Notes: generated by a model from the sequence alone, not told the origin. Counted from the first letter of the stretch, positions 51,896 through 64,000 are shown. The stretch is DNA of 64,000 nt from an uncultured Acidimicrobiaceae bacterium (GCA_963823815.1 CAWGMU010000003.1:326442-390441), one strand, 5' to 3'. Made by a program: numbers and translations.

Positions 51896-52390
51896 TCACT
51901 CAGTAGCAGGGTTCCGAAGGTCATGTGGGTGGGCGTCAATCACGACCCGAAGGGTGACGTCGTGTTCAAGGGCGGCCTTGAGGGAGCTCAGCAGGAACGT
52001 GAAGCCGGCCGTTGACTCGAGCGCACGCGCGACCTGGGTGTCGGCGTCGCCGGTGAAGCCGGTTTCGGTGATGACCACGTAGGTCGTGTCGTTCTCGTGT
52101 GGACTGAAGTTGAACTCGACGGTAGTCGGATGGGAGGGGTCGTACCCGTCCCAGGTGAATCGGATCAGCCGGTCGTCCTCAACCTTGTCGACTCGGACGG
52201 CCCCGGCGGCGCCGTACATCTCCCACTCCCAGAGAAGTTCGGCGCCCTCGACCATTCGGCCGCTGCTCTTCGAGTACCAGAACCTCGTGGTGATGCTCGG
52301 ATCCGCGAGGGCCTCGAACACGTCGTGCGGCGCTCGCCGGATGAGCATGCCGACGCGCACCGTCGGCGGTCGAGTTAGTTCGCTCGACAT
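51896..52390 (-). CDS. SRPBCC/AHSA1-family protein
   Basis: VFEALADP..T.FW, WEWEMY, IRFTW and ITETGF. Confidence 0.88.
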   Translation of the reverse strand: MSSELTRPPTVRVGMLIRRAPHDVFEALADPSITTRFWYSKSSGRMVEGAELLWEWEMYGAAGAVRVDKVEDDRLIRFTWDGYDPSHPTTVEFNFSPHENDTTYVVITETGFTGDADTQVARALESTAGFTFLLSSLKAALEHDVTLRVVIDAHPHDLRNPATE

Positions 52391-52472
52391 GGATGATCTC
52401 CTCTCTTCGCGGGCGGTAGTAGCGAGCCCGAACGTTGCGGACCAGGTGGATGAGAAGCGAAGTTAGTTGGTG

Positions 52473-53918
52473 TCAGGGGAGTGAGTTGATCACCACCTGC
52501 TTCACTCGGGTGAACTCCTCCACGCCCGCGGCGCCGCCCTCCTTGCCGTAGCCCGAGGAGCGGAATCCGCCCACCGGCATCTCCGGGCCGAGGGTCAGGT
52601 GGTCGTTGATCCAGACGGTCCCGAACTGCAGGGCGTTGGCGAAACGCGTCGCGCGTCCGACGTCACGCGTCCAGACGGACCCGGCCAGTCCGTATTCGAC
52701 GTCGTTGGCGAGTTGGAGCGCCTCGTCCTCGTCGGCGAACCGCTGCACCGTCACGACCGGCCCGAAGCACTCCTGCTGGACCAGGGCGTCGGCCTGGTCC
52801 AGATCGGTCACGATGGTCGGTTCGAAGAAGAAGCCGGGCCGCTCGGGAGCGCCGCCGCCGAGCACGATGGTCCCCGTCGAACGCGCTCCCTCGACGAAAC
52901 CGCGGACCCGTGTCCGCTGGGCCTCGGAGATGAGCGGGCCGAGGGTCGTCGCGCGATCGGCGGCCGCTCCGAGCGCAACCCGCTGGAACTCGCTCGCCAA
53001 TCCTGCGAGGAAGAAGTCGAGGAGGGGAGCGTGCACGAGGATCCTTGTTGCGGCGGTGCAGTCCTGACCGGCGTTGTAGAGCGCGCAGCCGGCGATGGTC
53101 GGGAGCGCCGACTCGAGGTCGACGTCGCTGAAGACAACCACCGGGGCGTTACCGCCGAGCTCGAGGACGACGGGTTTCGGCGTCGCCGCGGCGAGCTCGG
53201 CGATCCGTCGCCCCGCTCTGGTCGAACCCGTGAACGTCGTGAGCGCGGTCAGGGGATGGGTGACCAGCGCCTCGCCGGCGACGGGACCACGCCCGTGGAC
53301 GACGTTGAGCACGCCCGGCGGCAGGACTTCGGCCGCGAGTTCACCGAAGGCGGCCGTCGTCAGTGGCGTGTTCTCCGAGGGCTTGACGACGACGGTGTTG
53401 CCCGCGGCGAGCGCCGGGCCGATCTTCCAGACGGCCTGCCACAGCGGGTAGTTCCACGGCGTGATCGCGGCGACGACGCCAAGCGGTTCTCGCCGGAGGT
53501 AGAAGGAGCGTCCCGCCACGTAGTCGCCGCCGACCTGGCCCGAACCCATCCGCGCCGCACCGACGAAGTAGCGAAACGCGTCGGCGATGGCGGGGAACTC
53601 GACGTCGTGGGCGGCGGTCCACGGCTTTCCGGCGTCGAGTACCTCGAGGTCCGCGAACCGGTCCAGGTCGGCCTCGAAGCGGTCGGCAAGTTTGCGCAGC
53701 TGCTGGAAGCGCTCACCCGGCGTGTAGCTCGACCACCGCGGAAACGCTCGGTGAGCGGCCTGGATCGCGTCCTCGACGTCCGACGCCGACGAGTCGCCGA
53801 CGGTCGCGATGGTCTCTCCCGTCGAAGGGTCGAGCACGTCGATGGTGTCATCAGACGAAGCTGGCCGCAGCGCGCCGTCGATGAGATTGTCAACCCTTCG
53901 CACCGAGTTGTCGCGCAC
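52473..53918 (-). CDS. Aldehyde dehydrogenase (aminobutyraldehyde/betaine-aldehyde type)
   Basis: ITPWNYP, KPSE, FTGS, LELGG, NAGQDC and E.FGPV. Confidence 0.92.
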   Translation of the reverse strand: MRDNSVRRVDNLIDGALRPASSDDTIDVLDPSTGETIATVGDSSASDVEDAIQAAHRAFPRWSSYTPGERFQQLRKLADRFEADLDRFADLEVLDAGKPWTAAHDVEFPAIADAFRYFVGAARMGSGQVGGDYVAGRSFYLRREPLGVVAAITPWNYPLWQAVWKIGPALAAGNTVVVKPSENTPLTTAAFGELAAEVLPPGVLNVVHGRGPVAGEALVTHPLTALTTFTGSTRAGRRIAELAAATPKPVVLELGGNAPVVVFSDVDLESALPTIAGCALYNAGQDCTAATRILVHAPLLDFFLAGLASEFQRVALGAAADRATTLGPLISEAQRTRVRGFVEGARSTGTIVLGGGAPERPGFFFEPTIVTDLDQADALVQQECFGPVVTVQRFADEDEALQLANDVEYGLAGSVWTRDVGRATRFANALQFGTVWINDHLTLGPEMPVGGFRSSGYGKEGGAAGVEEFTRVKQVVINSLP

Positions 53919-54010
53919 GTGGCTCCCCTCTACTCGCCGAGCGTCGCCGCTCACCGTGGCGGTCCGCCCGCGACGGGCCACGGTGCTCGGCCCCTCTCGG
54001 GTGTACCGGT

Positions 54011-55654
54011 CTATTCGACCGGGATCTCCTTGTTGATGAGACCGAGGTCGATGCCCTGGCTCTTGCGCACGAGTCGCGCCACGATGTAGACGACGATCGC
54101 GAGCACGTAGAGCGCGGCCATGAAGACGAGCGAACCCTTGTTGTTCACGCCGAACGCGCTGTTCTTCATCCACTCGATGAGGTTGTAGATGATGAGGCTC
54201 ATCGTCACGAGTCCCGCGACCGGCACGATGGGTACGCCCATGAATCGGAATTTGCTCGCGGCCGACGAGGCCCACAGCTCGGGCTTGCGCCAGGGGAGAA
54301 TGACGACCGCGAAGGCGCTGACGAGATACGTCACCGCGATCACGAGCGTCGCGTCCAAGGTATACGTCGCGAATTTGACCCAATAGGAGTAGACGGCGCT
54401 CAGCGCCACGGCCGGCAACAGCATCAAGAAGAGCGACGCCATCGGGACCTTGCGCTTCTCCGAGACCGAAGCGGCCGCGTCGGGCAGCACACGGTCGAAG
54501 GCAGCGGCGAAGATCACCCGAGTGGAGGAGAGAAAGAGTGTCCCGACCCAGCCGAAAAACCAGAGGCTCATCACGAGCAGCAAGATCACCTGGAAGGCCG
54601 CGTTGTGGACTAGCCAACCGGCCAGCATCATCGGGTACGGCCAGATCGGGATGGTCGCCTTGCCCGCCCAGTAGACGGCGTTCGCGTCGTTGTAGAACGA
54701 CCAGCCGAAGGTCTTGAGCATCAGCAACAAGAACACGACCGAGAGCAGGACCGTCAGCCAGAGGCCCGTGAACATGCCGGTGAAGACGCGCTTGAAGTCA
54801 CTCGCGCCGCGCACCTCGCCGTAGAGCGTCGAGCCCCAGTTCGGCCACAGGAGATAGAACATCAGCATCGGCACGAGCAGCATGCTCGCGCCCCAGGCGT
54901 TCAGCCCGAAGGCTGGCGCCGAGTAGCTGATGGCTTTCGCGGCGGACTGCGTGGCGCCGTAAGCGTGGTTGACGCCGAAGATCTTGTGCGCCTCAAGGTT
55001 GATGGAGCTCACGAAGCTGCTGTGCGAGTGGAAGAGCAACAAGACGACGACGGCGAGGAAGCCGACCATGCCGCCGAGGAAGCACCACTTCTGGATCTTG
55101 GCGTAGCCGCCCATGCCGAGCGAGACGAAGATGCCCGCCAGGATGATCGTGATGACGCAGATCGTCATCGTGCCGTTGTGCGTGCCGAAGTACGAGGCGA
55201 GGCCCTTCGCGCCGATGGTGTAGAGCACCGGCTGGAAGAGTTCGACGTTGAGGACCGTCCCGTAGATCGGCGCCCACAGCCAGAGGATGAACCACCAGCC
55301 GGTCGTCGCGAACACGAAGCCCACCGGTCCGCCGAGGATGCGACTCTGCCAGACGTAGTCGCCCCCGGCTCTCGGTATCGTCACGATGAGGCCGGTGTAG
55401 GCGATCACGAGGAACGACACCCACACCGCCGAGATCAGTACGCCCGTGAGCAACTGGCCCTTCGGGATGAACGAGTTGAAGGAGAACTCATAGATCCCGA
55501 GCGTGATGATGTTCGTCGACAGGCAGGCGTAGATGATCGCGTCGCGCACCGACCAGCCCCGCACTAGGCCGGTCGCCTTGCGCAGGAACAGCGTCGGGGC
55601 TTCGGACCCCAACGGCCTTCCCCCCAGGTCTCCGGTGTCTTCGGTAATTGCCAC
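54011..55654 (-). CDS. APC-superfamily amino acid/amine permease
   Basis: FLRKATGLVR, PRAGGDYVWQSR, GEV, R.IFA.AFDR.LP and C-terminal EIPVE. At least 12 TM segments. Confidence 0.88.
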   Translation of the reverse strand: MAITEDTGDLGGRPLGSEAPTLFLRKATGLVRGWSVRDAIIYACLSTNIITLGIYEFSFNSFIPKGQLLTGVLISAVWVSFLVIAYTGLIVTIPRAGGDYVWQSRILGGPVGFVFATTGWWFILWLWAPIYGTVLNVELFQPVLYTIGAKGLASYFGTHNGTMTICVITIILAGIFVSLGMGGYAKIQKWCFLGGMVGFLAVVVLLLFHSHSSFVSSINLEAHKIFGVNHAYGATQSAAKAISYSAPAFGLNAWGASMLLVPMLMFYLLWPNWGSTLYGEVRGASDFKRVFTGMFTGLWLTVLLSVVFLLLMLKTFGWSFYNDANAVYWAGKATIPIWPYPMMLAGWLVHNAAFQVILLLVMSLWFFGWVGTLFLSSTRVIFAAAFDRVLPDAAASVSEKRKVPMASLFLMLLPAVALSAVYSYWVKFATYTLDATLVIAVTYLVSAFAVVILPWRKPELWASSAASKFRFMGVPIVPVAGLVTMSLIIYNLIEWMKNSAFGVNNKGSLVFMAALYVLAIVVYIVARLVRKSQGIDLGLINKEIPVE

Positions 55655-55673
55655 GATTCCCCCTTGGTAGTGG

Positions 55674-56612
55674 TTAGCCGTTGACGAGGATGTACCTCGT
55701 CACCTTCTTCTTCTTTTCGTTGAGATCGATCACGGCGCCCTGGAGGACGCCGTCGGTGTAGACGCTGCCGGGATTGAGCGCCAAGGTGCGGCCCAGGTTC
55801 TTCATGCCCCGGCTCTCGTGGATGTGGCCGTGCACCGAGAGCATCGGCTGGTGCTTCATGATCGCCTCGGCGACGGCCTTCGAGCCGACCGGCTCCATGA
55901 CTGCGCCGCCATGCTTCGGCCGCAGGGTCTCGTCGAGTGCCGGCGCCTCGTCGAGGCCCGAGTTATAGGGCGGCGCGTGGAAGTTGAAGATGGCCCGACC
56001 CATGTCGGGGATCTGCTCGGCGAGGGCCTCGATGCGCTGGGCGAGCTCGGGCTCGCTGGCCTCGCGGAAGGTGTTCCAGGGGGTGGGGTTGGTGTAGCCC
56101 ATTGAGGCTAGATAGAACCCGTCGAGTTCGACGACCTTGCCCTCGGTGAAGTTCACGTGGGGCGCGGACTCGATGACGTTGTCGATCTCGAAGGTGTCGT
56201 CGTTGCCGCCGTTCAGGTAGCACGGGATCGTTCCCTCGCGCAGCTTCGAGTCGGCCATGTCCAGCCAGCGGTCGAGGGTGTGGACCATCTCGGTCGTGAA
56301 GCGACGGTCGATCGAGCCGTCCTCCTCGTTGAGGGCGTTGAGCTCCTCAGAGGAGATGCGGGTGGGGTAGAAGCCGCGGTTGCGGATCAGCGCCTCGATG
56401 GCCTTCACCTCTTCTTCGGACTCGAGGTGGTGCTTTTCGCCGGCGAAGGTGACCTCGTAGAAGCCGTTCCCGACGACGACCGGCACCAGCACCTTCCCGG
56501 TGAGGTCGCCGCCCAGGATCACCATGTCCGCTTTGTAGAAGGCGGCGGCGTTCAGGAACTTGCGCCAGCAGATCTCCGAGCCGTGGATGTCGGTCGCGAA
56601 GAAGATCCTCAT
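55674..56612 (-). CDS. Calcineurin-like (Icc-related) metallophosphoesterase
   Basis: TDIHGS, GGDLTGK, GNDD, HAPP and HGHIHE. Confidence 0.9.
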   Translation of the reverse strand: MRIFFATDIHGSEICWRKFLNAAAFYKADMVILGGDLTGKVLVPVVVGNGFYEVTFAGEKHHLESEEEVKAIEALIRNRGFYPTRISSEELNALNEEDGSIDRRFTTEMVHTLDRWLDMADSKLREGTIPCYLNGGNDDTFEIDNVIESAPHVNFTEGKVVELDGFYLASMGYTNPTPWNTFREASEPELAQRIEALAEQIPDMGRAIFNFHAPPYNSGLDEAPALDETLRPKHGGAVMEPVGSKAVAEAIMKHQPMLSVHGHIHESRGMKNLGRTLALNPGSVYTDGVLQGAVIDLNEKKKKVTRYILVNG

Positions 56613-56655
56613 GCCCGCCTTCGCACCTCCCGACTACCGCTCAGGGCGAGCGTAA

Positions 56656-56671
56656 AACCACCATATGGAAC
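56656..56671 (-). promoter_or_regulatory. Candidate IclR-like site upstream of phosphoesterase-APC-ALDH
   Basis: Minus-strand GTTCCATATGGTGGTT matches GTTCTACAATGTGATT (63322-63337) at 11 of 16 positions. Confidence 0.4.
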
Positions 56672-56738
56672 GGCGCTTCTCGCCGCCTACCCGGAGCGCT
56701 GGCAATGCTTATCACAGGTCCCCAAGAGTTTCAAGGAG

Positions 56739-57518
56739 TTAGTGATCAACCTCTTCGGGTAACTCGTACCAGCGCGTCCGCTCACCGACCTTGGCGCGCA
56801 TCTTCCACTTCATCGACTTGGGCGTCGTGTTCGCGATCTCGAAAAGCAAGACGGCGCTCGCCAAGGCGTCGTACGGCGCGGGTGTCGGCACGAGGTGCGG
56901 ATGCTCCTCGGCGAGGTGCGGCAGCTTCGCGAGGTTGCCCGTGACGGTGCGCCACCAACCCCAGTCACCGGCGAGGACCTTCTCGAATCTCGTCGCGTCG
57001 ATGCCGCCCGCACTCGTGGTCTCGCCGACCACCACGGGGTGTCCCGAGAGCAGGTGGAAGATGTCGTGCGCGTCCTTCTCGTTGATCTCGATGATCTGGA
57101 GCTTCGTGAGCAGCACGTCGACGACGTCGAGCGTGATCGGCATCGCCGAGAAGCGCGGTCGAAAGTCCAGCACGTGGCACATGTTGAGCTGGTCCACCAT
57201 CACGTCGATCGGCCGCCCCGAGGGCGCGTTGAAGTACATCTGGCGATCACCGTTGAGCGAGTTGAACCGCTTGTCCGCCTCGCAGCCGGCCGACTCGAGG
57301 TAGGTGACGACGTCCTTTCGACCCTTCGAGAGACAGCCGAAGTCGATGTCCTGATCCCGGCGCAGTCGCGGCGTGAAGTCGGGGCAGAGCACGCGCACCG
57401 CCAGTCCGCCGAGCAGACGCAAGTGCACGCCCGCGGCGGCGGCCCCCTCGGCGAGCGCGCGCGCCTCGGTTAAGGGGTCGTCGGCCGTGCCGACGAGGTC
57501 CGCTGCGCTCTCGGCCAT
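56739..57518 (-). CDS. Pol-beta-superfamily nucleotidyltransferase-like protein
   Basis: LLGGLAV (hGG), DIDF (DxD), IDV (third Asp), LLTKL and KD..D. Confidence 0.75.
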   Translation of the reverse strand: MAESAADLVGTADDPLTEARALAEGAAAAGVHLRLLGGLAVRVLCPDFTPRLRRDQDIDFGCLSKGRKDVVTYLESAGCEADKRFNSLNGDRQMYFNAPSGRPIDVMVDQLNMCHVLDFRPRFSAMPITLDVVDVLLTKLQIIEINEKDAHDIFHLLSGHPVVVGETTSAGGIDATRFEKVLAGDWGWWRTVTGNLAKLPHLAEEHPHLVPTPAPYDALASAVLLFEIANTTPKSMKWKMRAKVGERTRWYELPEEVDH

Positions 57519-57585
57519 CGGTGCTCCCTTGATCGACAGGGCAAATCTATACCGGGGCGCACGTCGCCTCGGAGCCGCGCTGAGC

Positions 57586-58464
57586 TCAGCGACGCGCCGT
57601 CGAGTCGTCGAGCGTGGGGGAGTGCGTCGTGGCGGCGGCGAGCAGCGACTGGCGCCACTGTTCGGTCTCGCGCAGTTGGTTGAACGTGAAGACGTGCACA
57701 CCGTCGACCTTGTTCCCCGGGTCCGCCAAGGCCGCTCCCTCGCGTTGGAGCAGCCGAGTCGGGTCGTAGCCGCCGGGCGTGCCGAGGCGCACGATCCAGT
57801 TCCGGTGCCCCGAGAGGACCCGCGCCGATTCGCCGACGCCGATCTTCGTCGCCATGCGCAACAGCTTCGCCTGCTCGACGGGTCCCGCGAGTCCGAAGTA
57901 GAGCGGCAACTCGACGCCGCGCGAGCGCACCCGCGCGATCCATTTGCGCGCCGTCGTCGCGTTGAAACAGAGGTTGCTCACGATGTAGGTGGCGTAGCGG
58001 CGCTTGTCCCACATCGCCTGAACGGTGAGGTCGTCCGAGATGCGCGGATGGCTCTCGGGATAGCCGGTGATCCCGACGTTCGGAAACGGCCGCCCGAGTT
58101 CGTCGAGTTCGAGCAGCAGACCGAGCGAGCTGTCGTAGCGCCCGACCGGGGGATCGGCGTCGCCCGCGGGAACAAAGACGTCCTCCACGCCGAGGGCCAC
58201 GAGTCGCGCGACGATCTCTTCCAAGTGCGAGCGATCGACGACGAGTCTCGCCGAGACGTGCGGCACGACGCGATAACCCTCAGCGCGAAGGCGCTCGGTT
58301 ATCTCGAGCGAGGTGTCGAGGCCCTTGGTGGGCGAGGCCGTCACGGTGACGGTGACGTCGCGCGGCACGAACTCGAGGACCTTCTGCGCGATGGACGCGT
58401 TGGGGATGATCTCGTAACGTGGACGCTCGAGCAAGGTCGTGGCCGACCGGAGTGAACTACGCAC
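57586..58464 (-). CDS. metF: Methylenetetrahydrofolate reductase (MetF-like)
   Basis: YEIIP, VVPHVSAR, AGD, ITGYPESHP and HVFTFN. Methyl-transfer gene context. Confidence 0.82.
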   Translation of the reverse strand: MRSSLRSATTLLERPRYEIIPNASIAQKVLEFVPRDVTVTVTASPTKGLDTSLEITERLRAEGYRVVPHVSARLVVDRSHLEEIVARLVALGVEDVFVPAGDADPPVGRYDSSLGLLLELDELGRPFPNVGITGYPESHPRISDDLTVQAMWDKRRYATYIVSNLCFNATTARKWIARVRSRGVELPLYFGLAGPVEQAKLLRMATKIGVGESARVLSGHRNWIVRLGTPGGYDPTRLLQREGAALADPGNKVDGVHVFTFNQLRETEQWRQSLLAAATTHSPTLDDSTARR

Positions 58465-59125
58465 GATGACTCACCGCCACCGTCGCCCCGGATGAGCGCG
58501 CCATCCGCAGAAGACTCTCGAGCTCGACTTCGAGTGAACCGGTGCCGACGTTCACGATCTCGAGCGGCAAGGCGAAGAGCGTCGCCACCGCGCGGGCCTC
58601 CTCTTCGAGTTCGGCGCGCGGTCGCTGTGCCAGCCACACGACGCGCCGATAGTGGGAGAAGTAGTCGCCCCAGAGCTCGGGGTGACGGTCGAGACCGAGC
58701 TCGTGTAGCACGGTGCGGCGAAAGCTCTTCACCAAGAAGTCCGTCAGCAGATAGGTGCCGGGCTCTGCGGCGAACAGCTCAGCGACTTCGGTCGAGCCGG
58801 CAAAGACGTCGTAGCAGTGCTGACCGCCGAGGCGCTCGAGCGAGAGTCGGCGACAGACGTCGTCGAGCGCGCCGTAGGTGCCACAGTCGGCGTAGGCGAG
58901 AGCGACGCGGTGACCCTGAGAGAGGAGCTCTCGGGCGAGGGACTCGACCGCCGGTGCGATCTCGTGGGGACGATTGTGCAACAGAGCGGGCAGGAGATGG
59001 AGGTCGACGGACCAGTTCCGACGACTCGCGATCTCGCGGATCGAGGGGCCGAGCGCCCCGCAGGCGATGACCGCGACCTCGGGAACCTCAGGCGGGGAAG
59101 GCCAGCTGATCGACGAATCGGTCAT
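58457..59125 (-). CDS. DUF1638-like protein (corrinoid reactivation accessory)
   Basis: VIACGAL, LHNRP..I, YADCGT.G.LD, HCY, YLLTDFL and YF.HY. Adjacent to the ASKHA activator. Confidence 0.8.
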   Translation of the reverse strand: MTDSSISWPSPPEVPEVAVIACGALGPSIREIASRRNWSVDLHLLPALLHNRPHEIAPAVESLARELLSQGHRVALAYADCGTYGALDDVCRRLSLERLGGQHCYDVFAGSTEVAELFAAEPGTYLLTDFLVKSFRRTVLHELGLDRHPELWGDYFSHYRRVVWLAQRPRAELEEEARAVATLFALPLEIVNVGTGSLEVELESLLRMARSSGATVAVSHRA

Positions 59126-60992
59126 TGAAGTCGCTTCTATCGGAAAGCTCGACATACTCCACCTCCTCCAGCAAGGTCATGGCCCCCGCGCGTTCGCGCA
59201 GACTGAGGAGCGTCATCTTCGCGCCTTCACCGGCGACGTTGCCGGCGCTGACGATGCGCAGCAGCGGGAGCTTTGGCACGAGACCCAAGCGAACGGCGCT
59301 CGCTGGTGAGAGGTAGCTCCCGAAGGAGCCGGCGAGCAGGACCTGCTGGAGGTCCTCGACGGCGAGCCCCGCCTCTTCGAGCAGTATGCGCCATCCGGTC
59401 GCGATCGCGGCCTTCGCGAACTGCAGCTCGCGGACGTCGCGCTGTGAGAGATAGATCGACTGTTCGACGTCGCCCTCGTCGCCGAGCCAGTGCACGACAA
59501 AGACGCGGTGCTCGCCCAACTGGGTCAATCGGTCGGCGACCCCGGGCGCGAGAGTTGCGGCCTCGTCGTCGCTCACGAATCGACCCGACGAGTCGATGAG
59601 CTTCAGCTCCACCAGTTCGGCTACGACGTCGACGAGTCCCGATCCGCACAGTCCGAGTGGTTCGGCGTCGCCGATGACGCCGAGCTCGATCCCATCGGCG
59701 CGCACCTTGACGACCTCAATGGCGCCCGGCGCGGCGCGCATCCCGCAGCGGATGGCGGCGCCTTCGAAGGCCGGACCCGCCGGCGCGGCCGTCGCGAGAA
59801 GGCGATCGCTGTTGCCGACGACCACTTCGCAGTTGGTGCCGATGTCGAGGAAGAGCCGCACGCGAGAGTCCCGGTCCATGCCCGACGCCAAGAGCCCCGC
59901 AATGATGTCCCCGCCGACGTAGGCGCCCAGCGCCGGGAAGACCACCGCGCGAGCTCGTTCGTGCACGTTGACGCCGACGTCGCTCGCGAGGATCTCGGGG
60001 AAGAACTTCGTTGACATGATGAAGGGCGCGACACCGAGCGCCTCGGGGTCGATGCCCAGCACGACGTGGGTCATGGTGGCGTTGCCCGCGATCGCCACTT
60101 CGTAGACCTCGCTCGGATTGACGCCGCCCTCTAGACAGACGGCCTGGGCGAGCTCGTCGAGCGACTCGTGGGCCAGCTGGGTCAACCGCTCGAGTGCCCG
60201 AATGTCCATCATGATGGCGCTGATGCGCGTGATCACGTCGGCGCCGAAGGGCTGCTGCTTGTTGAGCATCGAGTGCACCGCGACGGGCGTGCCGGTCGAG
60301 AGGTCGAGCAGCGTCGCGACGACGGTCGTCGTGCCGAGGTCGAAGGCGATGGCGAAGTTGCGTTCGGTGGTGTCGCCGGGCTCCACCGCGATCAGGACGT
60401 CATCGACGACAACGGCGGTCACCTTGTAGTCGTTCGCGCGCAGCACCGTGCCGAGTGAGCGCAGCACGCTGAGCTCGGGCCGCAACTCGAGGTCGTCAAG
60501 GGCCGCGAAGAGCCGATCGAGGTCGGTCGTCTGGTCCGACAGCGAAGGTGCCGCGAGCTCCACGTAGCGCTTCTGGACGGCGGGGCGCAGGATGACTTTG
60601 CGTCCGACACCGACGGTCGCCGCCTTCGGCCGAGTGACCAGTGGCGGGACCTCGACGTGGAGGTTGCTCGTAACTTCCACGCGGCAGGCGAGTCGCCAGC
60701 CAGCGCGCAGCTCGTCGGTCGAGTAGGCGCGGGTGTCGAGCGCGGTGATCGGCGCAGCCCCGTCGAGAACCTTGACCTTGCATTTGCGGCACGTGCCGTG
60801 ACCGCCACAGGTGGAGTCGATGGCGACCCCGTTCCAGCTCGCGGCGTCAAAGAGGATGACACCCGGCGGCACGCGAACCTTGCGTCCGGCCGGTTCGAAA
60901 AGGAGGTCGAATCGGCCCCGCGCGTCTCCGGTGAGACCACCCGTTGATCCCGCGAGCGGTTCGTCGTCGCGAAGCGTTCGGGCCTCGCTCAT
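59088..60992 (-). CDS. Reductive activator of corrinoid proteins (2Fe-2S plus ASKHA ATPase, RACE/RamA-like)
   Basis: CGGHGTCRKC...RLAC, DLGTTT, GADVITRI, DIGTN.E, AGPAFEG, CGSG and LAGSFG. Confidence 0.92.
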   Translation of the reverse strand: MSEARTLRDDEPLAGSTGGLTGDARGRFDLLFEPAGRKVRVPPGVILFDAASWNGVAIDSTCGGHGTCRKCKVKVLDGAAPITALDTRAYSTDELRAGWRLACRVEVTSNLHVEVPPLVTRPKAATVGVGRKVILRPAVQKRYVELAAPSLSDQTTDLDRLFAALDDLELRPELSVLRSLGTVLRANDYKVTAVVVDDVLIAVEPGDTTERNFAIAFDLGTTTVVATLLDLSTGTPVAVHSMLNKQQPFGADVITRISAIMMDIRALERLTQLAHESLDELAQAVCLEGGVNPSEVYEVAIAGNATMTHVVLGIDPEALGVAPFIMSTKFFPEILASDVGVNVHERARAVVFPALGAYVGGDIIAGLLASGMDRDSRVRLFLDIGTNCEVVVGNSDRLLATAAPAGPAFEGAAIRCGMRAAPGAIEVVKVRADGIELGVIGDAEPLGLCGSGLVDVVAELVELKLIDSSGRFVSDDEAATLAPGVADRLTQLGEHRVFVVHWLGDEGDVEQSIYLSQRDVRELQFAKAAIATGWRILLEEAGLAVEDLQQVLLAGSFGSYLSPASAVRLGLVPKLPLLRIVSAGNVAGEGAKMTLLSLRERAGAMTLLEEVEYVELSDRSDFNDRFVDQLAFPA

Positions 60993-61852
60993 TGGCCGCT
61001 CGCGGCCACCTGGGATCGATGGGTGGCGATCCACGCGGCCCCCCACGGGTCGCGATCGAGGAGGAGATCGCCGGCCTGAACGGCCCGCACCAATTGGGGC
61101 GTGCGCGCGTCCATGATCGCGCTCGTAAGCCCGCACTGCATCGCGATGGGCAAGAACGTCGCCCCGAGGGTTGCGCGATCGGGCATGCCGAAGGAGACGT
61201 TCGACGCGCCGAGGGTCATGTTCACCCCGAGTTCGTTATGGATCAGTGCAATGGTCTCCAAGGTCTTGGCGACAAGGGTGGTGTCCGCTCCGATGGGCAT
61301 CGCGAGCGGGTCGATGAGGACGTCTTCGACAGGGATGCCGTACTCGCCGGTCGCGACCGCCACGAGCTTTCGCGCGAGCTCGAGTCGCCGCTCGGGCTCG
61401 TAGGGGATCTCGTTCTCGTCGTTGGGCAGTCCGATGATCGCCGCGCCGTAGCGTTTCACGAGCGGCAGGATCGCCTCGAGCCGATCGTCCTCGGCGGTGA
61501 CCGAGTTGACGAGGGCCTTGCCTTGGTACGTCGCGAGTCCGGCGTCGAGGGCCTCGATGACCGAGGAGTCAATGCAAAGTGGTAGGTCGGTGAGTCCCTG
61601 AATCATGGTGACGGCCTGGATCATGAGGTCGACCTCGTCGGCGAGGGGGACGCCCATGTTGACGTCGAGCACCATGGCGCCGCCCGCGACCTGCTGGGCG
61701 ACGTCGATCGCGATGCGCGAGAGGTCGCCGGCGCGCAGCTGCTCTTGGAAGATGCTGCGCCCGGTCGGGTTGATGCGTTCCCCGATGATGCAGAACGGCT
61801 GGTCCACCCCGATGACCACTTCCTTGGTCGGCGAGGAGAGGACGGTGTGCAC
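60989..61852 (-). CDS. Methyltetrahydrofolate:corrinoid methyltransferase (pterin-binding domain, AcsE/MetH-like)
   Basis: IIGERINPTGR, LDVN, IDSS, NSV, IDPL and GASNVSFG.P. Confidence 0.92.
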   Translation of the reverse strand: MHTVLSSPTKEVVIGVDQPFCIIGERINPTGRSIFQEQLRAGDLSRIAIDVAQQVAGGAMVLDVNMGVPLADEVDLMIQAVTMIQGLTDLPLCIDSSVIEALDAGLATYQGKALVNSVTAEDDRLEAILPLVKRYGAAIIGLPNDENEIPYEPERRLELARKLVAVATGEYGIPVEDVLIDPLAMPIGADTTLVAKTLETIALIHNELGVNMTLGASNVSFGMPDRATLGATFLPIAMQCGLTSAIMDARTPQLVRAVQAGDLLLDRDPWGAAWIATHRSQVAASGQ

Positions 61853-61857
61853 GGCGA

Positions 61858-62523
61858 CTACGCCAGGGCCGTGGCGCGACGTCGCGCCAGGAGGTCCTTC
61901 GCCTTCTTCACGGCGGCCGACGCGTCCGAGGCGTAGCCGTCGGCTCCGACGGCGTCGGCGTACTCCTGGGTGACCGGGGCGCCGCCAACCATCACGATGA
62001 CCTTCTCACGCAGACCGGCCTTCTCGAGCACGTTCATGTTGGCCTTGAACATCGGCATCGTGGTCGTGAGGAACGCCGAGAAGCCGACGATGTCGGGCTT
62101 GTGCTCGATGATCGCTTCGACGAAGCGTTCGGGGGCGACCTGAACCCCGAGGTCGATCACGTGGAAGCCCGCGCCCTCGAGCATGATGTCGACCAGGTTC
62201 TTGCCGATGTCGTGCACGTCGCCCTTCACGGTGCCCATGACGAACGTGCCCACGGGTTCGACGCCGGTCTCGACCATGAGTGGCCGCAGGACCTCGAGTG
62301 CCCCGGCCATGGCGCGCCCCGCGATGAGCATCTCGGGTACGAAGAAGTCGCCACGCTCGAAGCGCGCGCCGACCTCCTCGAGCGAGGGGATGAGCGAGTC
62401 GAAGAGCAGGGTCTCGGGGGTGAGGCCCATGGCGAGGCCGGCGTTCGTGAGCTCGAGCACCACCGGCGCGTTGCCGAGCAGCGTGGCGTCGTACATCTCC
62501 TTTAAGAGCTCGTCCTGGTTCAC
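61858..62523 (-). CDS. Corrinoid (B12-binding) protein
   Basis: FVPEML, GTVKGDVHDIGKNLV (DxHxxG), S.FLTTT and GGAP. Confidence 0.95.
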   Translation of the reverse strand: MNQDELLKEMYDATLLGNAPVVLELTNAGLAMGLTPETLLFDSLIPSLEEVGARFERGDFFVPEMLIAGRAMAGALEVLRPLMVETGVEPVGTFVMGTVKGDVHDIGKNLVDIMLEGAGFHVIDLGVQVAPERFVEAIIEHKPDIVGFSAFLTTTMPMFKANMNVLEKAGLREKVIVMVGGAPVTQEYADAVGADGYASDASAAVKKAKDLLARRRATALA

Positions 62524-63308
62524 GCGGCCCCCCTCCTCTTCGCTCGGTACCCGAGGGTTGCTGACAACGCGTTCGCCTCATTGACGCACTGAGCGCCGAC
62601 CTGGCTGACGCGCGTCGCGCCGAAGCGCGTCGACGGTCCCGACACCGAGATCGCGGCGAGAACGACTCCGTCGGCCCGACGCACCGGTGCGGCAACGGCG
62701 ACGAGCCCGGACTCGAGCTCCTCGTTCGCGACGGCGAAGCCGCGTCGTCGGATCCGGGCCAACTCCGCGTCGAGTTCGGTCCGCGAGGTAATGGTCCTCG
62801 GGGTGAGGCGTTCGAGGCGCCCCGGGGGCAGCGTGGCCGCGCCGTAGGCGAGGAGGACCTTGCCGAGTGCCGTGCAGTGCAGCGGCTCGGAGCGGCCGAG
62901 CCAGTTGGTGCCGCCGAGCACGTAGCGGCTGTCGACCTGGGCGATCTGGACGACGAGGGCGTGACGGATGACCCCGAGGTTGACCGTCTCGCGACTGCGC
63001 TCGCCCAGACGTTCGAGGAAGGGCTGCGCGACGGCGGCGAGGTCGGTCTCGGCGTTCGCGCCGAGCGCGTAGCGCACGAAGGCCTCCCCGGGCACGAAGC
63101 CACTCGGGTCGCGGCGGAGCAGTCCATTGCGTTCGAGGGCACTGAGGATGCGCGACGCGGTGCTCTTGGCGAGTCCGGAGGTCTCGGTGAGTTCGGCGAA
63201 GCTGACCGGACGGGTCGCCTCGACGACGTGACGCACGAGCGCGGCGGCCCGGTCGATGGCCTGCGAGCCGGACGGCTTGGTCGTGGCGGTCGCTTGCACG
63301 GGTTCCAT
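62520..63308 (-). CDS. IclR-family regulator heading the corrinoid operon
   Basis: GLAKSTASRIL HTH, ETVNL, PLHCTALGK and AVAAPV. Confidence 0.93.
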   Translation of the reverse strand: MEPVQATATTKPSGSQAIDRAAALVRHVVEATRPVSFAELTETSGLAKSTASRILSALERNGLLRRDPSGFVPGEAFVRYALGANAETDLAAVAQPFLERLGERSRETVNLGVIRHALVVQIAQVDSRYVLGGTNWLGRSEPLHCTALGKVLLAYGAATLPPGRLERLTPRTITSRTELDAELARIRRRGFAVANEELESGLVAVAAPVRRADGVVLAAISVSGPSTRFGATRVSQVGAQCVNEANALSATLGYRAKRRGAA

Positions 63309-63385
63309 AGTACAGTACGAGGTTCTACAATGTGATTCGCGGCCTCAGGCGCGTGGCTGCTGATCTCGAGCGAAGTGGGGTGACG

Positions 63386-64000
63386 ATGTTCGTAAACAAG
63401 ATGGCCCGCTACGAGCTGCTCTCACCCGACGCGATCGAGGTCCTTGATCGCGGGTGGCGACGCATCGTCTCGGAGATCGGCGTGCAGTTCGTGAAGCCCG
63501 AGGCGACCGAGCTGTTCGCCAAGGCCGGACAGAAGGTGGACGGCCAGACCGTGTGGCTCGACCCCGACTTCGTGATGGAGCAGATCGCAAAGGCCCCAGG
63601 CGAGTTCGACGTCCAGGCGCGCAACCCGGCCAACAACGTCCACGTCGGTGGTGACGCCATGATCTTCTCTGGGGTGTACGGCCCCCCGTTCGTGCGCGCC
63701 GGTAGCGAGCGACGCGACGCCACGCTCGATGACTTCCGAAAGTTCTGCATGCTCGCCCAGAGTTTCCCCGAGCTGGACTCGGCCGGCGGGGTCATCTGCG
63801 AACCCAACGACGCGCCACTCGACTCACGGCACCTCGACATGATCTACGCCCTGCAGACGGTGACCGACAAGTTCTACATGGGCAACGTCGTCTCGGGCGT
63901 AAACGCGCGCGACACGATCAAGATGACCGAGATCCTCTTTGGCAGTCGCGAGACCATCGAGGAGACTCCCGCGACGATCTCGCTCATCAACTGCAACTCG
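63386..64000 (+). CDS. Trimethylamine methyltransferase (MttB) superfamily protein, 3' end outside window
   Basis: Manual translation MFVNKMARYELLS...EIGVQF...AP.EF...ARNP...YGPPFV...RRDATL.DF...CEPND.PLDSRHLD...INCNS matches the MttB N-half. Divergent from the corrinoid protein operon. Confidence 0.88.
   Translation, partial: MFVNKMARYELLSPDAIEVLDRGWRRIVSEIGVQFVKPEATELFAKAGQKVDGQTVWLDPDFVMEQIAKAPGEFDVQARNPANNVHVGGDAMIFSGVYGPPFVRAGSERRDATLDDFRKFCMLAQSFPELDSAGGVICEPNDAPLDSRHLDMIYALQTVTDKFYMGNVVSGVNARDTIKMTEILFGSRETIEETPATISLINCNS

Follow-up and report, generated by a model that had tools for sequence, protein, structure and literature searches.

Gene content of the locus

The DNA analysed here, referred to as the window, is a stretch of 64,000 nucleotides from an uncultured Acidimicrobiaceae bacterium (GCA_963823815.1, CAWGMU010000003.1:326442-390441). 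It contains three adjacent genes which encode a nucleotidyltransferase of the Pol-beta fold (NTase), a metallophosphoesterase (MPE) and a permease of the APC superfamily. The source genome is a soil metagenome-assembled genome (MAG) of 2.16 Mb that is 77% complete, and close homologues are named Acidimicrobiales or Acidimicrobiaceae. The data sets listed as containing this stretch are DNA from soil metagenomes, with no RNA set among them. A preliminary description had reported three co-oriented genes, and all of them are present on the minus strand where it had placed them (Table 1). The claimed flanks were likewise confirmed, with an MTHFR-like gene (PF02219) on one side and a gene for an aminoaldehyde-type aldehyde dehydrogenase (ALDH) on the other. 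No HEPN or antitoxin partner, the absence of which had been pointed out, was seen next to the NTase gene, whose adjoining genes are those for the MPE and the MTHFR-like protein. Intergenic gaps measure 67 bp (MTHFR-NTase), 126 bp (NTase-MPE) and 19 bp (MPE-permease).

Table 1. Position and assignment of the trio, its flanking genes and the archaeal counterparts.
Feature	Position	Strand	Remarks
APC-superfamily permease, distinct subfamily	54011-55654	-	547 aa, 12 transmembrane segments (TM); PF13520 42.8 bits
Metallophosphoesterase (MPE), dinuclear, cytoplasmic, TT1561/aq_1956 type	55674-56612	-	312 aa; weak Pfam match, invariant metal ligands
Pol-beta-fold nucleotidyltransferase (NTase), MenT/AbiEii/ANT(2'')/LnuA structural group	56739-57518	-	259 aa; motifs and predicted fold
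Aminoaldehyde/betaine-aldehyde-type ALDH, downstream; pathway context, outside the constant trio	52473 to ~53981 (start approximate)	-	PF00171 529 bits
MTHFR-like gene, upstream	57586-58464	-	PF02219 26.5 bits
Corrinoid-dependent glycine-betaine demethylation cluster, upstream context	57586-64000	- except MttB (+)	Pfam matches
Archaeal modules	L167 5464-9731; L168 5432-9740		Proteins P0377, P0395-P0402; one record named Micrarchaeaceae

Co-inheritance of the three genes

The trio is a conserved, mobile and obligately co-inherited module, and the association of its genes is far beyond chance. Among 401 Actinomycetota genomes the NTase was found in 52 and a strong match to the permease subfamily in 53; both occurred in 51 genomes, the NTase only in one, the permease only in two, and neither in 347. 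The gene of the sole NTase-only genome lies about 0.5 kb from a contig end, and the two permease-only genomes (57% and 88% complete) yielded fragments only. Permease matches are lacking over the whole range from E 1e-42 to 1e-18, so that this sample contains no orphan members of the subfamily. All three trio genes, this permease subfamily included, are missing from a genus-mate of the source organism (G173) whose genome is 99% complete; the module is therefore accessory and was recently gained or lost in this lineage. The genome of the window itself carries a single module plus one unrelated APC permease.

When 40 loci were fetched around NTase matches, all three genes were present in about 37 of them, the exceptions being contig ends or decayed copies. 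Linkage holds at identities as low as 31-38% for the NTase, 38-50% for the MPE and 21-30% for the permease. At least four gene orders occur in this set (NTase-MPE-APC, APC-MPE-NTase, APC-NTase-MPE and MPE-APC-NTase), and the permease gene is on the opposite strand in two low-GC genomes. In the decayed modules (L076, L077 and L078; G154:C8, G376:C3 and G271:C1) the NTase and permease genes are fragmented or have an internal stop, and one of the three is without its MPE/APC partner.

A second set was seeded with the MPE alignment, with one genome per species, and comprised at least 566 loci. In the best 80, which span at least six phyla, the permease gene was adjacent in 79 and an NTase gene was located within 8 kb in 63. 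The taxa represented in these 80 loci are Acidimicrobiia, Streptosporangiaceae, Trebonia, Rubrobacteraceae, Chloroflexota (Limnocylindria, Anaerolineales), Dormibacterota, Eisenbacteria, Acidoferrum and Syntrophomonadaceae; the trio also occurs in Firmicutes. All five genomes tested in which no NTase gene was nearby encode one elsewhere, mostly beside further MPE/APC copies. On metagenome contigs of close relatives the three genes follow one another in the same order, NTase-MPE-APC, within choline/glycine-betaine islands.

The MPE and permease genes form the tightest pair, with gaps that are often shorter than 30 bp. Within genomes, copy numbers follow the order APC ≥ MPE ≥ NTase: MPE-APC pairs without an NTase gene and lone permeases bearing the C-terminal tail described below exist, and one NTase may accompany two or three permeases.

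The module extends to archaea, where two contigs identified by genes for TBP and ribosomal protein L21e carry the permease, an MPE homologue and the NTase in this order. The archaeal MPE homologue was matched with a probability of 100% (hhalign, E 3.5e-79) and has kept the GNDD motif; the catalytic residues of both enzymes are retained across bacteria and archaea. The archaeal NTase is fused to a domain of about 300 residues that resembles xanthine phosphoribosyltransferase (PRTase), and ten clusters of this fusion, 530-590 residues in length, were found. A nucleotide- or phosphoribosyl pyrophosphate-binding domain of the PRTase type is the kind of addition typical of a regulated enzyme. Trios in archaea and other bacteria had been mentioned in the preliminary description, and they were indeed found in Chloroflexota, Dormibacterota, Firmicutes and archaeal contigs. 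The objection that the three genes might not co-occur elsewhere, which would have spoken against a functional unit, thus fails decisively.

Two further candidate fusions came up in this survey. An apparent permease-NTase fusion in family f19, with frames of 800-870 residues, was rejected as high-GC read-through in another frame, the permease having its own stop. In one Streptosporangiaceae MAG an 868-residue open reading frame (P0394; L169 8001-10607) joins a BetA-type choline dehydrogenase of the GMC family to the NTase, and the MPE gene follows directly. Since this frame could reflect a missing stop codon or faulty assembly as well as a genuine fusion, it was not used as evidence.

The nucleotidyltransferase

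The start of the NTase is an ATG inside a longer open reading frame. The Pol-beta motifs attributed to it earlier (GG, DxD, D, K, KD..D) are intact as G37-G38, D57-x-D59, D105, K139 and K148-D149..D152, with conservation of 90% or more at each position across 43 relatives with 33-65% identity. Invariant in this alignment are G37, D57, D59, D105, H115, K139, Q141, D149, W186, W238, R241, G245, W250 and Y251, while G38, K148 and D152 are retained in at least 90%. The conserved residues comprise the Pol-beta triad, two AbiEii-type NTP-binding motifs and a C-terminal W-Y-E-L-P-E-E. All characters that define the Pol-beta superfamily (hG[GS], D-x-D, a third carboxylate and the core fold) were found, and motifs III and IV of AbiEii/MenT are present as K139 (L-L-T-K-L-Q) and K148-D149-x-x-D152.

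Matches in family databases were weak. With 20.2 bits it missed the threshold of NTP_transf_5 (PF14907, 31.2 bits), which only a distant relative (P0363, 33.2 bits) passed among the relatives tested. The DUF1814 (AbiEii/MenT) model gave no match in a Pfam scan at E ≤ 0.1, NTP_transf_5 alone being matched. No Pfam or NCBIfam match to GlnD_UR_UTase, GlnE, HD or a second NT domain was obtained for this single-domain protein, nor did Pfam find an ANT/Lnu signature in it; a relative (P0258) reached 19.9 bits with PF10706 (cut-off 21). A sequence search of the PDB gave no match at E ≤ 10. The family comprises 1879 cluster representatives at E ≤ 0.001, and homologues with 66-94% identity are found in many Acidimicrobiales assemblies.

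The predicted structure of the NTase (pLDDT 93.8) is closest to MenT1 (Z 11.8), ANT(2'')-Ia (11.6), a fungal NTase-like protein (11.1), MenT3/TglT (10.1), LnuA (9.9) and JHP933 (9.7), with MenT4 also among the matches; similarity to CD-NTase structures is weak (Z ~6). Judged by its modelled fold, the NTase is therefore to be grouped with the minimal nucleotidyltransferases that modify tRNA or small-molecule hydroxyls.

The C-terminal W-Y-E-L-P-E-E of the NTase (56739-56780) resembles the E-[IL]-P-x-E tail of the permease (54011-54030). An idea suggested by this likeness is that the two ends might bind one common surface of the MPE.

The metallophosphoesterase

The metal-ligand motifs of the MPE are complete: D8-x-H10, G35-D36, N137-D138-D139 (GNDD), H212 and H261-G262-H263. 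Across 31 relatives with 38-75% identity D8, H10, G35, D36, N137, D138, D139, H212, H261, G262, H263, H265 and E266 are invariant. The protein has the characters of the calcineurin-like superfamily, the histidine of GNH[DE] being replaced by D138 family-wide. The GNDD sequence pointed out in the preliminary description is thus present and invariant, but the emphasis laid on its oddity is less well founded, as GNxD variants occur in small phosphodiesterases, e.g. YfcE and MJ0936 (GNCD). By the alignment, GNDD is a trait of the family and not a defect.

The Pfam model Metallophos (PF00149) was matched with 23.2 bits (cut-off 21.5); Metallophos_3 (PF14582) stayed below its cut-off (25.4 versus 28.2 bits), and Metallophos_2 was likewise just missed. 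A search for the family scored 7861 relatives, while a sequence search of the PDB gave nothing better than E 0.3. The predicted structure (pLDDT 94.2) matches aq_1956 (2yvt, Z 24.5) and TT1561 (1uf3, Z 23.8) best, over the whole catalytic domain, followed by Mre11, MPPED2, Rv0805 and GpdQ (Z 17.6-20.1, the lowest value being that of GpdQ).

A second MPE paralogue, 36-40% identical to the MPE of the window, is encoded 3' of the ALDH gene in some choline islands, which then have the order NTase, MPE, APC, ALDH, second MPE and dimethylglycine dehydrogenase (DMGDH). It was found at L050 2601-3563, L051 14487-15440 and L054 16381-17334 and in L126, L144 and L145.

The permease and its terminal motifs

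The permease matched AA_permease_2 (PF13520) well above the cut-off of 27 bits, its hydropathy profile has 12 peaks, and APC signatures are present at P94-R95-A96-G97-G98-D99-Y100, at G279-E280 and as F-D-R-x-L-P. It is by all these characters a member of the APC superfamily; in NCBIfam no curated subfamily model was reached.

Two terminal motifs mark the permeases of the module. F-x-R-x-[AS]-[ST]-G-L precedes TM1 in 109 of 120 distinct module permeases, the misses being over-extended starts of the reading frame or G-L-T variants that still have [ST]. Position 28, here T28, is threonine or serine in every readable sequence. At the C-terminus Q-G-I-D-L-x6-[EQ]-[IL]-P-x-[ED]-COOH (EIPVE in the window) is found in 116 of the 120. 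Both motifs persist down to permease identities of 21-30%. The FLRKATGLVR start and EIPVE end, called distinctive in the preliminary description, are therefore hallmarks of the family; a start of the general '+-x-x-G-L' type, however, is ordinary for APC carriers. In the alignments, the features specific to the subfamily are confined to [AS]-[ST] before G-L and the terminal tail.

Predicted complex of MPE and permease

Modelling of a complex with the permease tails, as proposed in the preliminary description, was carried out for the MPE and the permease in three runs and with three controls, all with our own alignments. The ipSAE values were 0.65, 0.64 and 0.68 in the three runs and 0.00 in all three controls; at least 73% of the contacts were common to the runs, and partner pLDDT was at least 84. 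In a calibration of the tool 58 of 80 solved complexes and 2 of 110 mismatched pairs came up to the mark, figures that hold only roughly here given the use of own alignments. We know of no solved complex between an APC carrier and an MPE, and neither the NTase nor the MPE has a close relative in the PDB, so that the result is unlikely to reflect structures memorised by the predictor.

The most confident contacts are those of the permease tail (residues 539-546) with helix 14-26 of the MPE, which contains the invariant K18, and with its last strand (308-312). In the remaining interface permease segments 20-33, 93-105, 181-185, 382-399 and 459-468 face the catalytic side of the MPE, where H10, K40, N137, D138, W179 and E266 are contacted. 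In the 12-TM topology the contacting permease segments all fall on a single side, which is cytoplasmic by the established topology of APC carriers, in which the N-terminus is inside. The model supports binding between the two proteins. In the predicted arrangement the C-terminal tail of the permease anchors the MPE to the cytoplasmic side of the carrier, and the catalytic side of the enzyme points to the N-terminal motif.

Neighbouring pathways and likely substrate

Clustering of all neighbouring genes showed that the trio alone is universal and that there is no fourth conserved gene. The catabolic genes found beside it encode (i) BetA-type choline dehydrogenase (841 bits, cut-off 732) with ALDH, DMGDH and ETF; (ii) in Dormibacterota, GbsB-type choline dehydrogenase (574 bits, cut-off 550) with ALDH; (iii) sulfatase with OpuAC/ABC genes; (iv) type III glutamine synthetase (GS-III; 478 bits, cut-off 470) with formamidase, GATase and AsnC; (v) a creatinase-like protein; and (vi) FGGY kinases resembling glycerol kinase. 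Regulators of the IclR, GntR and AsnC families are often near the module. The archaeal trio has no catabolic genes alongside.

That the same module adjoins two non-homologous choline dehydrogenases strongly suggests that the permease imports choline or a close relative in these lineages and in the window, where choline itself or a similar quaternary or methylated amine is the most likely substrate. The variety of contexts, together with archaeal contigs that have no catabolic genes, speaks for a constant target of the NTase and the MPE: they follow the permease and not the pathway. The hierarchy of copy numbers likewise agrees with recognition, by both enzymes, of an unvarying feature of the permease and not of its variable substrates.

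Two observations on the neighbourhoods stand apart from this. A kinase of the choline-kinase/APH family is encoded between two DMGDH-like genes, inside an oxidative demethylation cluster, beside many modules of Actinomycetota, Chloroflexota and Dormibacterota (L056 15386-16708, and L063, L070, L077, L125 and L128-L138); in the actinomycete loci it is accompanied by a conserved protein of 99 residues that matches no family. At L008 1-2855 an NTase relative with 42% identity lies between a module-type permease gene and one for hydantoinase/oxoprolinase A, which is a different nitrogen-compound context.

Proposed function of the module

The best explanation of the trio is that of one uptake module in which a specialised APC permease is combined with two dedicated cytoplasmic enzymes, here supplying a choline/glycine-betaine catabolic island. 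For the chemistry within the module we tentatively favour, at a probability short of even, a reversible nucleotidylylation switch on the permease, which was the first of two options raised in the preliminary description. The NTase would take a nucleoside triphosphate (NTP) and place the nucleoside monophosphate (NMP) on the permease, the prime candidate site being the invariant Ser/Thr at position 28 near the inner gate, and the modification would switch transport. The MPE would be anchored by the E-[IL]-P-x-[ED]-COOH tail, which would pack on helix 14-26 (K18) and add to the last beta-strand (308-312); thus docked, it would hydrolyse the phosphodiester and reset the carrier.

Such a writer/eraser switch is the simplest reading because it accommodates an obligate and intact NTase, an MPE apparently tethered at the N-terminal gate, an invariant hydroxyl residue, independence of the substrate, fewer NTases than permeases and a nucleotide-binding fusion in archaea. 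Indirect support comes from the predicted docking of the MPE, from the invariant Ser/Thr in the segment it would contact and from the fact that both enzymes track the permease across pathways.

Several points weigh against the switch: (i) the nearest folds of the NTase include the small-molecule O-nucleotidylyltransferases ANT(2'')-Ia and LnuA; (ii) chemistry on the substrate would be equally compatible with the modelled NTase fold, as choline and possibly ethanolamine carry a hydroxyl; (iii) an MPE site facing the permease exit, as modelled, would also be expected of a substrate-channelling enzyme; (iv) when the final 12 positions of the permease were compared with the MPE columns by mutual information, the predicted contact columns came at ranks 24, 27, 37, 38, 65 and lower of 313, which is at most a weak enrichment and is confounded by phylogeny; (v) nucleotidyl transfer, the residue that would be modified, whether transport would be raised or lowered and the controlling signal are matters of inference only; (vi) related genomes in the co-occurrence tallies are not independent samples, and the tallies take in one unpublished genome (G120), the omission of which changes nothing material.

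The second option of the preliminary description places the chemistry on the substrate, and we consider it rather unlikely, albeit worth serious attention. Here the NTase would O-nucleotidylylate the imported amino alcohol or amine, and the MPE at the exit would cleave the phosphodiester or phosphoester; variants are metabolic trapping of the solute or a transient nucleotide 'handle', much like the cytidylylation step of fosfomycin biosynthesis. ANT(2'')-Ia and LnuA as fold neighbours of the NTase suit this scheme, as do the four invariant aromatic and several acidic residues in the C-terminal domain of the NTase, which might form a cation cage. It is also in line with the phosphodiesterases MPPED2, Rv0805 and GpdQ as the nearest characterised folds of the MPE, with the modelled orientation of the MPE catalytic face towards the permease and with the choline-kinase-family kinase adjoining some modules. 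However, the permeases diverge to 21-30% identity and adjoin chemically different pathways, whereas the NTase and the MPE are more conserved; some of the likely substrates (GS-III/methylamine type, creatinase-like) have no hydroxyl; and one NTase may go with two or three permeases. Moreover, BetA/GbsB and ALDH use free choline, so that a conjugate would have no obvious consumer, and hydrolysis back to the amine would amount to a futile NTP cycle.

Import of a phosphoester such as phosphocholine, phosphoethanolamine or glycerophosphocholine, from which the docked MPE would free amine and phosphate, is improbable. It would account for the close pairing of the MPE and permease genes (79 of the best 80 loci, short gaps), for a predicted complex with the active site facing the exit, for the similarity of the MPE to GpdQ, for the FGGY genes near some modules and for the choline-oxidation genes downstream. 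The NTase would then be an accessory or unrelated, which conflicts with its near-constant co-inheritance with the permease in the Actinomycetota sample and in the five further genomes, i.e. it is not optional. In addition, no APC carrier for phosphoesters is known to us, the GS-III/formamidase and archaeal contexts offer a phosphoester no role, and the MPE has no phosphate-starvation context.

More doubtful still is a transceptor, i.e. a permease that reports flux to the MPE and the NTase, which in turn mark a third protein or make and break a nucleotide signal controlling the island. Transporter-linked signalling has precedents in AmtB-GlnK-GlnD and LysP-CadC, and the predicted stable MPE-permease complex, the frequent IclR, GntR and AsnC neighbours and the sensor-like PRTase-type domain on the archaeal NTase would all agree with it. 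A third protein is nevertheless difficult to reconcile with the absence of a fourth conserved gene and with archaeal contigs that have no regulated pathway nearby, and the fold group of the NTase is not known for cyclic or oligonucleotide signals, its similarity to CD-NTases being weak.

The same chemistry as in the favoured switch might in principle serve as energy coupling itself, with T28 being nucleotidylylated and then hydrolysed in each turnover and the conformational cycle being driven thereby. If this were true, a secondary APC carrier would be converted into an NTP-powered primary pump for scarce amines, with its enzymes acting in trans; we regard it as a very long shot. The remaining probability falls to mechanisms that were not thought of.

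Finally, the possibility that the NTase is a tRNA nucleotidyltransferase toxin of the MenT/AbiEii type, placed beside transport genes by chance as part of a defence or toxin-antitoxin system, as might be read from MenT1 as best structural match, from MenT3 and MenT4 and from the AbiEii-like K139 and K148-D149..D152, can practically be dismissed in view of the near-perfect linkage to MPE and permease across phyla, the identity of 66-94% across many Acidimicrobiales assemblies, the co-directional position within catabolic operons, the missing DUF1814 match in Pfam and the fact that no antitoxin-like gene was seen. The reservation that the NTase might be a toxin or inactive, voiced in the preliminary description, is countered by intact motifs and by surroundings in which no toxin-antitoxin context was seen.

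Comparison with known systems

In its logic the trio is closest to amtB-glnK-glnD and to DrrA/SidD, and in its tethering to calcineurin and PP1, yet it is a member of none of these, and a carrier with obligate NTase and MPE partners fits no described kind. The amtB-glnK-glnD operon, which is conserved in Actinobacteria, encodes an ammonium channel, a PII protein and a Pol-beta-type uridylyl/adenylyl-transferase with an HD domain that removes the group. In both systems a transporter for a nitrogen compound is encoded together with a Pol-beta NTase and a phosphohydrolase function, a soluble protein binds the transporter from the cytoplasmic side (predicted for the trio), and uptake is controlled by reversible NMPylation (proposed for the trio). 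Unlike that operon, the trio has no PII protein, its transporter is an APC carrier and not an Amt channel, its hydrolase is a separate calcineurin-type MPE instead of a fused HD domain, its NTase is MenT/ANT-like and not GlnD, and the proposed target is the carrier itself.

Calcineurin (PxIxIT) and PP1 (RVxF) are phosphatases of the MPE fold that dock on short motifs of channels and transporters. In the model of the module an MPE-fold enzyme would similarly be held by a short peptide, with beta-strand addition beside the catalytic domain, whereas the motif of the trio is strictly C-terminal (E-[IL]-P-x-[ED]-COOH), the enzyme is TT1561-like with GNDD, and the bond proposed to be cleaved is a phosphodiester (NMP-O-Ser/Thr) and not a phosphomonoester. 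Writer/eraser logic is known from Legionella, where DrrA/SidM is a Pol-beta/GlnE-like AMPylase and SidD a de-AMPylase with a phosphatase fold, and from GlnE, which acts on glutamine synthetase. A Pol-beta writer and, for SidD, an eraser of phosphatase fold are shared with the proposed switch; the families differ, however (SidD has a PP2C fold, of which the trio has no example), the targets (Rab1, glutamine synthetase) are soluble, and the genes form no obligate three-gene module with the target.

As regards the individual enzymes, the NTase shares its fold and the motifs hG[GS], DxD, D, K and KD..D with ANT(2'')-Ia, LnuA, MenT1 and MenT3. It differs from these proteins and from AbiEii by identities of 11-19% and by an extra C-terminal helical region (W186, W238, W250, Y251), and in place of a resistance or toxin-antitoxin context it has the MPE and the permease as constant partners. 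TT1561 and aq_1956 are MPEs from structural genomics with no known substrate or partner. They are the best structural matches of the module MPE, which also shares the weak PF14582 match, but identity is 16-21%, and in the module MPE motifs II and III are separated by an insert of about 90 residues.

Significance of the module

No functional study was found in the literature on the gene combination, TT1561, aq_1956, Metallophos_3 or NTP_transf_5 (PF14907). The module brings together three large families, each without a described function, at the point where choline, glycine betaine and methylamine enter catabolism in uncultured lineages that are abundant in soil, and there it probably controls the uptake of major nitrogen and one-carbon compounds. 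If the proposed switch is true, reversible NMPylation would be extended to a transporter, and the permease would be the first transporter under direct control by reversible nucleotidylylation. The MPE would then be the first prokaryotic enzyme of its fold to be attached to a carrier through a short motif at the C-terminus of the latter, and a function would be provided for the orphan TT1561/aq_1956 fold and for a MenT-like NTase outside toxin-antitoxin biology.

Flanking genes in the window

Nearly all genes between 52.4 and 64 kb are encoded on the minus strand, in the order of transcription IclR, B12-binding corrinoid protein, pterin-binding methyltransferase, the corrinoid reductive activase RACo, DUF1638, MTHFR-like protein, NTase, MPE, APC permease and ALDH. 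MttB is encoded on the plus strand and continues beyond the edge of the window. No Rfam RNA family was found in 52000-64000, a scan for promoters of the sigma-70 type was negative, and terminator-like sites did not clearly exceed those in shuffled sequence. The ALDH scored 594.5 bits with the NCBIfam aminobutyraldehyde dehydrogenase subfamily model (cut-off 615) and 458 bits with that for betaine-aldehyde dehydrogenase.

The quaternary-amine demethylation cluster upstream of the trio is complete, with a non-Pyl (pyrrolysine-free) MttB, IclR, the B12-binding protein, the pterin-binding methyltransferase, RACo, DUF1638 and the MTHFR-like protein. The last of these is barely above the PF02219 threshold and matched no NCBIfam model. 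The gene order of this upstream block is repeated in L002 and L079-L084.

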